From Escherichia coli (GTDB lineage Bacteria > Pseudomonadota > Gammaproteobacteria > Enterobacterales > Enterobacteriaceae): 64,000 bases of DNA. Positions 47,992-64,000 of this stretch are shown one piece after another. Below the pieces are notes generated by a model, which saw only the letters and a program-made list of their open reading frames with translations, was not told the origin of the DNA and ran no database searches. The stretch lies in NCBI RefSeq assembly GCF_024502345.1, contig NZ_JALDNN010000001.1; one strand, written 5' to 3'. The translations under genes were made by a program, and so were the position numbers. The stretch's first letter is position 1; every line of letters starts with the position of its first letter.

Positions 47992-48405
47992 TCATCCCAA
48001 AACTGCCGTACCCAGCCGACAAGTGCAGCAACGCCGCCCCTGTTCATCGAAAACGACGATTTCCCAGCTCTGATTTTGCCGCCCAAGATGCAGCGGCTGG
48101 CAGACGCCGCGTACCTTGCCTTCAGACACCGGGCGATGATGGGTGGCGTTAAGTTCCGTACCCACCACACACTGCCCGTCACGGGTCATCATAAATCCGG
48201 CCATCGATCCCAGCGTTTCAGCCAGCGCCGCCGACGCGCCGCCATGCAGCAGGCCAAACGGCTGATGAGTACGGGTATCAACCGGCATTTCGGCTTCCAG
48301 CACATCATCTCCCAGACGGGTATACACAATTCCCAGATGCGCCACCATTGTGTTATCGCTGGTGGCGTTCAGTTCGTCGAGCGTTAAATGGCGTTTCCAG
48401 ATCAT
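47992..48405 (-). CDS. entH: proofreading thioesterase of enterobactin synthesis
   Basis: 137-aa hotdog-fold ORF at 3' end of ent operon. Confidence 0.92.
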
Positions 48406-48407
48406 GC

Positions 48408-49154
48408 TTATGCCCCCAGCGTTGAGCCGCCATCGACCACAATATCCTGTAGGGTGATATGGCTGGCGAGGTCAGAGGCGAGGAACAAAATCGTGTTGGC
48501 GATCTCTTGTGGACGGGCGATTTTCCCCAGCGGAATGCCGAGTTTAAACTGCTCGCCAAAGCCGCGAATACGCTGTTCTTCGGCGTCATCGCTCACCCAC
48601 AGCGTGCGTTGCATATCGGTGTCGGTGGAGCCAGGCGAAACCACATTACAGCGCACGCCGCTAACCGCCAGTTCCAGCCCGACGCTCAACGCCAGGCTTT
48701 TCAGCGCCGCTTTCGATGCGCCATAAGCACTCATACCAATACGTGGCGTGTGTGCGGCGTCGGACGCCACAGTGACAATCGCCCCGCCCCGCTGACGGCG
48801 AAACTGGTTCATGGTTTGCTGAAACAGGTTAAACGCACCGCCGACGTTAACCGCAAAAGTCTGCTGCCAGTCCTCTTTACTGAGCTGATCGGTCGCGCCC
48901 ATGCGCAAAATTCCCGCCGCATTGACCAGCACGTCCAGTCGCTCCGTTTCAGCTAACAGTCGCTGACATACCTGCGCGACCTGCGCAGCATCGGCAACAT
49001 CCATCACTTCGGTCGCAAAGGGATATTGCTCCTGAGCGAACGCTTGATCAAAACCGGTAACTTTCGCTCCCGCCTCAACAAACGCCAGCGCCGTGGCGTA
49101 GCCGATACCTTTACCTGCGCCGGTTACCCAGACATTTTTACCGCTGAAATCCAT
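48408..49154 (-). CDS. entA: 2,3-dihydro-2,3-dihydroxybenzoate dehydrogenase
   Basis: 248 aa from [18 protein letters not shown] (SDR glycine-rich motif). Confidence 0.95.
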
Positions 49155-50011
49155 TATTTCACCTCGCGGGAGAGTAGCTTCCACCAGGCGTCGATGGTCG
49201 GGTTTTTCGCCAGCATGACAAAGTCGATATCACCATGCACTTTGCGCCAGCGCGCCGCCAGCGCCATCATGCGCACCGAATCCAGACCGTAGTCGATCAG
49301 GTTGTCGTCATCGAACGGTTCATCGGACTCGTCCAGCAACGGCAGGATAACCTCACGCAGCGCCGCTTTGCTGGCGGGGACAGGTGCTGGCAGTAATTCT
49401 TCAGTCATCACCACCCGGCCAGACCGCCCGGCCACATATTTCAGCGACATCAAATGCTCGTCACGGCTGAAATCGGCCAGCGCATCCGCCACCATAAACG
49501 GTTTAATATCGCGCATAAATGCGTCGGTTGCGGTGGTCATACAGCCAATGTGGGCATATACCCCGGTAATAATCAGCTGGTTACGTCCACTCTCTTTGAG
49601 CATTTGCTCCAGCGGAGAACGATGAAACGCGCTGTAGCGCCACTTCACCAGCACCGTGTCGTCGGCATCTGGCGTCAGGCGATCCACCACCTTTTGCTGT
49701 TCCGGCGAACGGGTCAGGCCCGGCCCCCACATATCATTCAACAGCGCCCGATCTTCATCGCTCTGCTCTTTCGGCTGGGCGGTGTAATAAACCGGGATAT
49801 TGTGCTGTTTGCAGTAGTCGCGCAGCGCAGCAATATTCGCGATCACCTGCTCCATCATCGGGCAGTTCTCGCCCCAGAAGCTGACAAAATAGTCCTGCAT
49901 ATCATGGATTAACAACGCGGCACGTTGCGGTTCAAAGGCCCAGTCAACTTTATTCTGCGGAATATCGTGAGACTCCGGCAGTGCGTAAGCCTGTAATTTT
50001 GGAATAGCCAT
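49154..50011 (-). CDS. entB: isochorismatase / aryl carrier protein
   Basis: 285 aa; C-terminal carrier-protein serine motif (DYGLDSVRMM); overlaps entA start. Confidence 0.96.
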   Translation of the reverse strand: MAIPKLQAYALPESHDIPQNKVDWAFEPQRAALLIHDMQDYFVSFWGENCPMMEQVIANIAALRDYCKQHNIPVYYTAQPKEQSDEDRALLNDMWGPGLTRSPEQQKVVDRLTPDADDTVLVKWRYSAFHRSPLEQMLKESGRNQLIITGVYAHIGCMTTATDAFMRDIKPFMVADALADFSRDEHLMSLKYVAGRSGRVVMTEELLPAPVPASKAALREVILPLLDESDEPFDDDNLIDYGLDSVRMMALAARWRKVHGDIDFVMLAKNPTIDAWWKLLSREVK

Positions 50012-50024
50012 CGTGTTCTCTCCT

Positions 50025-62600: not shown

Positions 62601-63548
62601 TTGTGCTGCCAGTCGGGTTGCCAGTTCCGGCAGCGTTTCTTGCGCCGCAATGTGAATACCCAACGGTAAAACGTTGAGCACGGGTCCGGTAGCCGTCAGC
62701 GCCGCCGAGCCCAGTCGACGCATAAAGATAAATCCGGCGGCGTAGTCCATGCGATTGCACAATCGCCCCAGCCACAAGGCTGCCAGCGCAAGGGCTAAAT
62801 CGGTACGCTGCACACCTGAAAGTTGCGTAGCCAGCTGGCGGAATTCCCCGTCGGTAAATTCCAGTTTCAGGCGCAGAATATCTGCCGAGGCGCTGCGCCC
62901 CGCTAAAGGTGCCGGAGAAAGTGACGCGGGCGGCGGCAGTTGACGACGCTGTTCTACCCAGAATGCCGCATCACGCTGCCAGGCTTCGCTTTCGCGGTAT
63001 TGCTGGTACTCTTCCACTACATCAGCGAAAGGCGTAAACGGCGAAGCAGGCGTTGGTTCGCCACGCAGCAATGCGCAGTAAATGTTGGCGATCTGGCGGG
63101 TAATGACCGGGAAACTGAAGCCATCGACCAGCAAATGGTGATAACGCTGATACCAGTACCAGCGGTTATCCGCAACATGTATCAGCTGATGAAAGACCAG
63201 TGGTTTACCGCTATCGACGCGCAAATCTTGTTGCAAATCCGCCTGCATTAATGCCTGCGCAGTACCGTGCGGATCAATATTGGTTCGCAGGTCGATAATT
63301 TCTGGCAGTTCGAATATCAGCGCATCATCGACCCATTGCCAGACTTCGCCGTTATCTTCCGTAAAACGCATCCGCAACGTATCTGCTTGCGCTAATCCGA
63401 CAACCACCGCGCGGGCCAGTAATGGCGCATCAACCTCTCCGGTTAACTCAACGTAATGCGCCACGCTCCAGGCGGAGGGTAAATCCGACAGTTTTTCTGC
63501 CATCCAGATGCCGGGCTGTGCGGCGACCAAAGGTAAATGCTGGCTCAT
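59667..63548 (-). CDS. entF: enterobactin non-ribosomal peptide synthetase (C-A-PCP-TE)
   Basis: 1293 aa; adenylation motifs (SGSTGRPKG), carrier-protein serine (GGHSLLAMK), thioesterase GYSLGG. Confidence 0.97.
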   Translation of the reverse strand: MSQHLPLVAAQPGIWMAEKLSDLPSAWSVAHYVELTGEVDAPLLARAVVVGLAQADTLRMRFTEDNGEVWQWVDDALIFELPEIIDLRTNIDPHGTAQALMQADLQQDLRVDSGKPLVFHQLIHVADNRWYWYQRYHHLLVDGFSFPVITRQIANIYCALLRGEPTPASPFTPFADVVEEYQQYRESEAWQRDAAFWVEQRRQLPPPASLSPAPLAGRSASADILRLKLEFTDGEFRQLATQLSGVQRTDLALALAALWLGRLCNRMDYAAGFIFMRRLGSAALTATGPVLNVLPLGIHIAAQETLPELATRLAAQLKKMRRHQRYDAEQIVRDSGRAAGDEPLFGPVLNIKVFDYQLDIPDVQAQTHTLATGPVNDLELALFPDEHGDLSIEILANKQRYDEPTLIQHAERLKMLIAQFAADPALLCGDVDIMLPGEYAQLAQINATQVEIPETTLSALVAEQAAKTPDAPALADARYQFSYREMREQVVALANLLRERGVKPGDSVAVALPRSVFLTLALHAIVEAGAAWLPLDTGYPDDRLKMMLEDARPSLLITTDDQLPRFADVPDLTNLCYNAPLTPQGSAPLQFSQPHHTAYIIFTSGSTGRPKGVMVGQTAIVNRLLWMQNHYPLTGEDVVAQKTPCSFDVSVWEFFWPFIAGAKLVMAEPEAHRDPLAMQQFFAEYGVTTTHFVPSMLAAFVASLTPETARQNCATLKQVFCSGEALPADLCREWQQLTGAPLHNLYGPTEAAVDVSWYPAFGEELAQVRGSSVPIGYPVWNTGLRILDAMMHPVPPGVAGDLYLTGIQLAQGYLGRPDLTASRFIADPFAPGERMYRTGDVARWLDNGAVEYLGRSDDQLKIRGQRIELGEIDRVMQALPDVEQAVTHACVINQAAATGGDARQLVGYLVSQSGLPLDTSALQAQLRETLPPHMVPVVLLQLPQLPLSANGKLDRKALPLPELKAQAPGRAPKAGSETIIAAAFSSLLGCDVQDADADFFALGGHSLLAMKLAAQLSRQFARQVTPGQVMVASTVAKLATIIDGEEDSSRRMGFETILPLREGNGPTLYCFHPASGFAWQFSVLSRYIDPQWSIIGIQSPRPNGPMHTAANLDEVCEAHLATLLEQQPHGPYYLLGYSLGGTLAQGIAARLRARGEQVAFLGLLDTWPPETQNWQEKEANGLDPEVLAEINREREAFLAAQQGSTSTELFTTIEGNYADAVRLLTTAHSVPFDGKATLFVAERTLQEGMSPERAWSPWIAELDIYRQDCAHVDIISPGAFEKIGPIIRATLNR

Positions 63549-63763
63549 TGTGCCTCCTGCAACTGGGTGAAATTCGCCGGTGTCAGAGTACGCCAGTGGG
63601 CTTCAAGCCACTGCTGGCAGGACTCTTGTGACTGCGGCTGACACACAATGTCCCAGCCTGCCGGTAAGGCGCATTGTTGCGGCCACAGACTGAATTGCCC
63701 CTGCGCATTGCGCAAAATGTAAAACGCTCCCTGCGGATCATCGAAGGGATTACTGAATGCCAT
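63545..63763 (-). CDS. ybdZ: MbtH-like protein
   Basis: 72 aa MAFSNPFDDPQGAFYILRNAQGQFSLWP...; overlaps entF start. Confidence 0.9.
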   Translation of the reverse strand: MAFSNPFDDPQGAFYILRNAQGQFSLWPQQCALPAGWDIVCQPQSQESCQQWLEAHWRTLTPANFTQLQEAQ

Positions 63764-63765
63764 AT

Positions 63766-64000
63766 TCAACTCCTGTCATGGAAAAGTGGTTGCCAGAGGT
63801 CGATTAGCCCCTCCATCAAGCCACCGCGCCAACAAAGCGCATCATGTCCGCCGTCAACCTGACGCCAGAAAATGGATTCTTTTATAGGGTGCAATTGCGC
63901 ATACAGCGCCTGATTGGCCCGCATGATCATCGGCTCGCGAATACCCGCTTCCAGCACAATGCGCAGACCTTCGGCGCTAACTTCACCAGCTTTTAGCTTT
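63766..64000 (-). CDS. fes: enterobactin esterase Fes, 3' portion (5' end outside window)
   Basis: C-terminal region ...VDGGHDALCWRGGLMEGLIDLWQPLFHDRS-stop upstream of ybdZ; reading frame continues to the window edge. Confidence 0.85.
   Translation of the reverse strand, partial: KLKAGEVSAEGLRIVLEAGIREPMIMRANQALYAQLHPIKESIFWRQVDGGHDALCWRGGLMEGLIDLWQPLFHDRS

Follow-up and report, generated by a model that had tools for sequence, protein, structure and literature searches.

Thirteen genes of the ent-fep locus and the 3' end of fes occupy positions 47992-64000 of a 64,000-bp stretch of Escherichia coli DNA (contig NZ_JALDNN010000001.1 of assembly GCF_024502345.1; this whole stretch is hereafter called the window). 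We compared the open reading frame (ORF) list of positions 46000-64000 with the annotation of E. coli SI-NP020, the best-matching complete genome, and of K-12 MG1655, and found the same gene order and strands in all three over 13 colinear genes: entH-A-B-E-C (minus strand), fepB (plus), entS (minus), fepDGC (plus), fepE (minus) and entF-ybdZ (minus), at 47992-63763. Together with protein family scores, these comparisons confirm the cluster identity and gene list proposed in an earlier sequence-only reading, and we put at about 0.95 the probability that the genes form the chromosomal enterobactin (ent-fep) locus of E. coli, organised as in K-12 MG1655 (b0585-b0597). The genes are given below with protein lengths in amino acids (aa), differences from the K-12 proteins and family scores.

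47992-48405, minus strand: entH, proofreading hotdog thioesterase (137 aa, protein identical to K-12; NCBIfam equivalog NF007607, 315 bits vs cutoff 237)
48408-49154, minus strand: entA, 2,3-dihydro-2,3-dihydroxybenzoate dehydrogenase (248 aa, 3 aa differ; NCBIfam NF006074, 441 bits vs cutoff 312)
49154-50011, minus strand: entB, isochorismatase plus aryl carrier protein (285 aa, 1 aa differs; Pfam Isochorismatase and PP-binding)
50025-51635, minus strand: entE, 2,3-dihydroxybenzoate-AMP ligase (536 aa, 4 aa differ; NCBIfam NF008192, 1032 bits vs cutoff 783)
51645-52820, minus strand: entC, isochorismate synthase (391 aa, 1 aa differs; NCBIfam NF011591, 864 bits vs cutoff 624)
53195-54151, plus strand: fepB, periplasmic ferric-enterobactin binding protein (GTG start as in K-12; 318 aa, 4 aa differ; NCBIfam NF008200, 516 bits vs cutoff 205)
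54155-55405, minus strand: entS, major facilitator superfamily (MFS) enterobactin exporter (416 aa, 1 aa differs; NCBIfam NF007792, 716 bits vs cutoff 324)
55516-56520, plus strand: fepD, ATP-binding cassette (ABC) permease (334 aa, 2 aa differ; NCBIfam NF007760, 628 bits vs cutoff 428)
56517-57509, plus strand: fepG, ABC permease (330 aa, 3 aa differ; NCBIfam NF007759, 648 bits vs cutoff 422)
57506-58321, plus strand: fepC, ABC ATPase (271 aa, identical to K-12; NCBIfam NF007606, 613 bits vs cutoff 497)
58318-59451, minus strand: fepE = wzz(fepE), lipopolysaccharide (LPS) O-antigen chain-length regulator (377 aa, 19 aa differ; NCBIfam NF007699, 619 bits vs cutoff 300)
59667-63548, minus strand: entF, serine-activating nonribosomal peptide synthetase (NRPS) with condensation, adenylation, peptidyl carrier protein and thioesterase domains (C-A-PCP-TE; 1293 aa, 26 aa differ; NCBIfam NF007605, 2803 bits vs cutoff 2400)
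63545-63763, minus strand: ybdZ, MbtH-like partner of EntF (72 aa, 3 aa differ; Pfam MbtH, 76.5 bits)
63766-64000, minus strand: fes (enterochelin esterase), 3' end only, last 77 codons (NCBIfam NF007758, profile positions 343-417 of 418; 1 aa differs from the K-12 Fes C-terminus)

The cluster represents the standard form of a system that is already known. Relative to the K-12 MG1655 enterobactin locus (entD-fepA-fes-ybdZ-entF-fepE-fepCGD-entS-fepB-entCEBAH, b0583-b0597), the window shares gene order, strands, lengths, start codons and overlapping gene junctions. The right-hand boundary had earlier been placed at 63769, which corresponds to a TTG-extended ORF; the ATG of ybdZ lies at 63763 and the fes stop codon at 63766-63768. 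NCBIfam equivalog cutoffs were passed by 11 of the 13 proteins (EntH, EntA, EntE, EntC, FepB, EntS, FepD, FepG, FepC, Wzz(FepE) and EntF), and the two proteins with no passing NCBIfam model, EntB and YbdZ, passed the Pfam models Isochorismatase and PP-binding (EntB) and MbtH (YbdZ). By Pfam, the domains of EntF follow the order Condensation, AMP-binding, PP-binding and Thioesterase, and its sequence holds HHLLVDG at 137 (condensation), GGHSL at 1003 (carrier serine 1006) and GYSLG at 1136 (thioesterase serine 1138), so that both the domain order and the core motifs (HHxxxDG, the carrier-domain serine and thioesterase GxSxG) are those of a C-A-PCP-TE NRPS. EntB carries a GLDSV motif with Ser245, and EntE carries SGGTTGTPK and YCSGD motifs. 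No substitutions relative to K-12 fell within the motifs checked in EntF, EntB and EntE.

All 13 genes have the length and start codon of their K-12 MG1655 counterparts and zero internal stop codons. An exact alignment with K-12 was run as a check for frameshifts and revealed none (362 substitutions and 0 indels over 47992-64000 in an ungapped base-by-base comparison, a nucleotide identity of 97.7%), upholding the earlier description of the genes as uninterrupted. A BLAST comparison of a longer segment (45206-64000, 18.8 kb) gave 97.7% nucleotide identity to K-12 with three gap positions, all to the left of 47992: one was intergenic, at 45688, and the others, next to each other in cstA, compensate one another and are an artefact of the alignment. 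Differences from K-12 per protein ranged from 0 (EntH, FepC) to 26 of 1293 residues (EntF), with 19 of 377 in FepE, and 45 of the 67 amino acid changes overall fell in EntF and FepE. By the Nei-Gojobori method there were 272 synonymous and 70 non-synonymous differences from K-12, and the ratio of non-synonymous to synonymous divergence (dN/dS) was 0.08 overall and at most 0.18 in every gene, implying purifying selection on the cluster rather than decay.

The gene fepE had been counted among the enterobactin genes, an assignment that the family scores contradict: its product matches the Wzz(fepE) equivalog NF007699 at more than twice the cutoff (scores listed above), and Pfam Wzz is recorded on the FepE product of the near-identical E. 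coli isolate ccpm3961 (described below). On this family match, fepE is a passenger in the cluster, a Wzz-type O-antigen length regulator belonging to LPS biology and not to enterobactin transport. Within the locus no gene diverges further from K-12 than fepE (95.1% nucleotide identity), and 12 of its 19 amino acid changes are packed into residues 68-103. As a separate observation, fepE and the entF-fepE spacer together (58318-59666) form the most divergent part of the locus, the spacer differing from K-12 at 16 of 215 bases.

Lineage and the genes beyond the window edge

The 15.8-kb stretch was present at a coverage of at least 80% in 5,412 of 5,426 complete E. coli genomes, in keeping with its earlier characterisation as ordinary core content. 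The phylogroup B2 strain UM146, for example, has the same 13 genes, all at full length. The best identity to any of the 5,426 complete genomes was 98.6% at the cluster and, elsewhere in the window, 98.7-99.2%. Given the low figure at the cluster, a decaying cluster of the Shigella type was considered, and was rejected because no disruption was found. In Shigella flexneri, degenerate ent clusters carry inactivating mutations or insertions; these clusters share the locus and chromosomal context of the one described here, in which no such lesions are present. We attribute the low best identity instead to a rare lineage combined with mosaic divergence along the cluster: relative to SI-NP020, positions 49492-53492 were almost identical and positions 55992-63992 were not. 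Mosaic divergence of this kind is usual for E. coli core genes.

The sequences closest to the window were a draft genome, ccpm3961, and a Logan assembly, and the window appears to come from a sparsely sequenced lineage. A search for exact copies of the window's EntF led to a 78.9-kb contig of GCA_001484085.1 and to the Logan assembly, with 4 mismatches (99.96% identical) and 1 mismatch, respectively, over 10,334 aligned bases. GCA_001484085.1 represents E. coli ccpm3961, a commensal isolated from a healthy child of preschool age, whose branch lies between phylogroups B1 and E (PMC7133007). The EntF protein encoded on its contig (LLYC01000123) is identical to that of the window. By its 4 mismatches ccpm3961 is a different isolate, and its contig runs on through fes, fepA, entD and hok.

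This continuation matters for what can be said of the pathway, as the window ends at base 64000 inside fes, with fepA and entD beyond it (in both K-12 and SI-NP020 the locus continues through fes, fepA and entD). EntD is the phosphopantetheinyl transferase that activates EntB and EntF, FepA is the outer-membrane receptor and Fes is the iron-releasing esterase; with these genes cut or outside, biosynthetic and uptake capacity does not follow from the window alone. The description of the cluster as complete therefore stands for the 13 listed genes, which are intact, and fails for the locus within the window, in which fes is cut and fepA and entD are missing. On the ccpm3961 contig all three genes are uninterrupted: fes (400 aa, 6 differences from K-12), fepA (746 aa, 4 differences) and entD (209 aa as called, against 206 aa with a later start in K-12; 4 differences). 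Indirectly, their intactness beside an identical EntF makes it likely that the strain from which the window derives also has a complete cluster; that the strain would produce enterobactin is predicted by near-identity to K-12.

Control regions of the locus

We scanned the whole 64-kb window on both strands for the 19-bp Fur consensus GATAATGATAATCATTATC, using dinucleotide-preserving shuffles as background. Four matches of at least 15/19 were found in the whole window, compared with 0.13 expected, and three of the four fell in two divergent control regions, at 52850-52868 and 52965-52983 (entC-fepB) and at 55485-55503 (entS-fepD). Local shuffles of these regions reached 15/19 in 0.05% (entC-fepB) and 0.9% (entS-fepD) of trials. 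The fourth match (251-269) falls in coding DNA, that of rihA, and probably arose by chance. Extra Fur boxes were sought in the cstA-entH and fepE-entF spacers and none was found, the best matches reaching only 10/19 and 11/19, respectively.

Fur footprints determined in K-12 were carried over to the window after shifting their coordinates by +777 bases, which we take to be the offset from NC_000913.2 to NC_000913.3; only with this offset do all three footprints, plus the fepA-fes one, land in intergenic DNA. They mapped without indels to 52959-52989 (fepB), 52826-52874 (entC) and 55466-55534 (fepD-entS), and the consensus matches all lie inside them. The underlying DNase I footprints are those compiled in Table 3 of Chen et al. 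2007 (PMC2189734): 623939-623969 for fepB and 624054-624102 for entC, from Brickman et al. 1990, and 621394-621462 for fepD-entS, from Lavrrar et al. 2002. An overlapping arrangement at 6-bp spacing, as seen in two of the operators listed here, has been described for Fur site clusters (PMC2189734). The consensus scan, the shuffles and the footprint-equivalent positions thus agree in supporting the Fur-box-like sequences that had been proposed at the two divergent promoters.

52826-52874, no strand assigned: Fur operator of the entCEBAH promoter (K-12 footprint-equivalent), with matches at 52844, 52850 and 52856 (13/19, 15/19 and 13/19) 6 bp apart; DNA 100% identical to K-12
52959-52989, no strand assigned: Fur operator of the fepB promoter (K-12 footprint-equivalent), with a 15/19 match at 52965-52983; DNA 100% identical to K-12
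52984-53168, plus strand: 185-bp dispersed repeat, G+C-rich and palindromic, lying between the Fur operator and the GTG start of fepB; absent from UM146 here
55466-55534, no strand assigned: Fur operator common to the entS and fepDGC promoters (K-12 footprint-equivalent), with 14/19 and 15/19 matches at 55479-55503, 6 bp apart
59617-59653, minus strand: terminator-like 15-bp hairpin just downstream of the entF stop codon (found by consensus scan; putative function)

The two divergent regions differ in how closely they follow K-12. The entC-fepB control region, a spacer of 374 bp, is 100% identical to that of K-12 MG1655, the 185-bp repeat included, whereas the entS-fepD spacer carries two substitutions in its operator region (55475 G>T and 55497 C>T). 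Each is found singly elsewhere, the 55475 change in UM146 and the 55497 change in the O103:H2 strain 129. The combination of 55475T and 55497T occurred in none of the 5,414 complete E. coli genomes matching this stretch (the best had one mismatch in 90 bases), and both near-identical relatives, ccpm3961 and the Logan assembly, have the pair. It looks like ordinary standing variation.

The entC-fepB spacer lies within a longer tract of about 1 kb (52549-53566), taking in the 5' end of entC, the whole spacer and the 5' end of fepB, that has a single difference from K-12, at 53231. The K-12-identical tract reaches about 270 bp into entC, and in fepB there is that single difference in the first ~370 bp; the coding DNA flanking the tract has a synonymous divergence (dS) of 0.08-0.10 from K-12. 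As the tract extends into both genes, recombination or regional conservation would explain it just as well as a special constraint on the spacer.

Judging by its position between the fepB operator and start codon, the 185-bp repeat would lie within the 5' leader of fepB. It is polymorphic: the full-length repeat was found in 2,720 of the 5,426 complete genomes, and UM146 lacks it at fepB, so that its entC-fepB spacer measures 188 bp compared with 374 bp in the window. The repeat has 41-nt inverted arms and is predicted to fold very stably as RNA (-95.5 kcal/mol, z = -5.55). Its family, which has a ~50-bp core, is found at a median of 14 sites per genome. The repeat is possibly of the BoxC type. 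BoxC is described as 56 bp long and present in 32 copies (PMC2267715), and a G+C-rich palindrome with a ~50-bp core and a median of 14 sites is compatible with that.

A terminator scan returned 27 sites compared with 18.6 in shuffles (~1.8 standard deviations), and the one candidate that appears convincing is the 15-bp hairpin after entF. Its stem arms are conserved in K-12 and SI-NP020, and variation falls mainly in the loop and tail. An Rfam scan of 45000-64000 (E<=1) returned only two sub-threshold matches and hence no curated RNA family in the cluster: a match to naRNA4 at 45547-45588 (32 bits vs 59.5), and a match to mir-188 on the palindromic repeat that was dismissed as spurious (28.6 bits vs a gathering score of 72).

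Predicted pathway and competing explanations

The near-identity of the locus to that of K-12 allowed us to carry over the established K-12 mechanism. EntC, the N-terminal domain of EntB and EntA would convert chorismate to 2,3-dihydroxybenzoate (DHB), which EntE would adenylate and then load onto the aryl carrier domain of EntB. EntF (C-A-PCP-TE), with the MbtH-like YbdZ, would activate serine, condense it with DHB and cyclotrimerise the product to enterobactin; EntH would proofread by clearing misloaded EntB. The siderophore would be exported via EntS, and ferric enterobactin would enter through FepA (encoded outside the window) and pass via FepB and FepDGC to the cytoplasm, where Fes (cut at the window end) would release the iron. 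When iron is plentiful, Fe2+-Fur on the entC-fepB and entS-fepD operators would repress transcription, and by analogy with K-12 the same repression may be expected in this strain.

Several observations weigh against reading the stretch as an intact, Fur-regulated locus of the K-12 type. The genes entD and fepA and most of fes lie outside the window, so that a complete cluster in this strain is no more than likely. Some substitutions were absent from the four reference strains compared, namely A148V, A198V, L591F, Q707E, F1069Y, L1088I and Q1107H in EntF, S532L in EntE, three in FepB and one in YbdZ. In the entS-fepD operator, 55497 C>T lowers the consensus match from 16/19 (K-12) to 15/19; the base is position 13 of the 19-mer, the spacer that a reading of the Fur box as hexamers (F-F-x-R) leaves unspecified. 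A sigma-70 consensus scan found 10 promoter-like sites compared with 11.0 in shuffles, that is, no excess. Promoter-consensus matches of 9/12 overlapped the Fur boxes (at 52828-52864, 55477-55505 and 55522-55493), in a region whose site count is no higher than in shuffles, and the proposed overlap of promoters and operators would therefore have its basis in the K-12 literature and not in the present scan.

A regulatory consequence of the sequence differences is improbable: the operator pair (55475 G>T and 55497 C>T), or the 185-bp repeat in the fepB leader, could change how the enterobactin transport genes are translated or regulated by iron in this rare lineage between phylogroups B1 and E. 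If so, either feature would make the locus a natural regulatory variant.

Also improbable is a cluster that is structurally intact yet functionally silent, its enterobactin production or uptake abolished either by one or more missense changes specific to the lineage (in EntF or EntE, for instance) or by a defect out of view in entD, fepA or fes. Functionally silent enterobactin clusters do occur in Shigella flexneri lineages, and both the 12 substitutions listed above, all in cluster proteins other than FepE, and the position of the window edge leave room for such a defect. Against it stand the dN/dS of 0.08 and the lack of stop codons and frameshifts, the checked motifs untouched by substitutions, the recurrence of the exact EntF sequence on several independent contigs, and the near-identical relative with full-length fes, fepA and entD at 4-6 aa differences from K-12. 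Last, it is scarcely credible that A+T-rich intergenic DNA produced the Fur-box-like sequences by chance and that they have no regulatory meaning: the control regions are indeed A+T-rich in places (29% G+C in the entS-fepD intergenic region) and the match in rihA shows that a 15/19 score can probably arise by chance, but the rarity of such scores in intergenic shuffles, the coincidence with K-12 footprints and the 6-bp-spaced overlapping arrangement all argue otherwise.

Remainder of the window and meaning of the locus

Outside the ent-fep locus, three structural differences from K-12 were noted. The ybdN reading frame is broken after codon 38, within the SFSGGKDS motif, by an IS903-like element of 1057 bp (40186-41242). 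The element has perfect 18-bp terminal inverted repeats (GGCTTTGTTGAATAAATC) and a 9-bp target duplication (GCGGCAAAG), and its transposase (40218-41186) belongs to the IS5 family (NF033579, 357 bits vs cutoff 140). A length of ~1057 bp, 18-bp inverted repeats, a 9-bp duplication and an IS5-family transposase are the features of the IS903 group within that family, and the name IS903 is proposed on these dimensions. At 34649/34650, 507 bp present in K-12 are missing; the loss takes in the intergenic promoter region between uspG and ybdR together with about 137 codons at the start of ybdR, of which a 5'-truncated remnant is left. At the left end of the window (1-1625), between rihA (3' end at 173-364) and ybeL (1642-2124), the K-12 island ybeQ-ybeR-djlB-ybeT-ybeU-djlC-hscC is replaced by two to three small ORFs, which include a DUF6985 protein (427-816) and a 173-aa hypothetical protein (856-1377); strain GF3-3 has the same rihA-ybeL arrangement.

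Rfam matches at gathering level outside the cluster comprised the rnk leader (33026-33134, 124.9 bits), a cspA-type thermoregulator at cspE (19598-20040, 124.5 bits) and the small RNA STnc70 (37840-37933, 44.1 bits), all expected enterobacterial features. No transfer RNA genes were found in the window.

These results carry little weight beyond annotation, identifying the window as E. coli chromosome from the cstA-ent-fep region. In practical terms, sequence past base 64000 is needed before a complete pathway can be claimed, and the proper annotation of fepE is as a regulator of O-antigen length. In the strain itself, purifying selection maintains the core genes for the catecholate siderophore.

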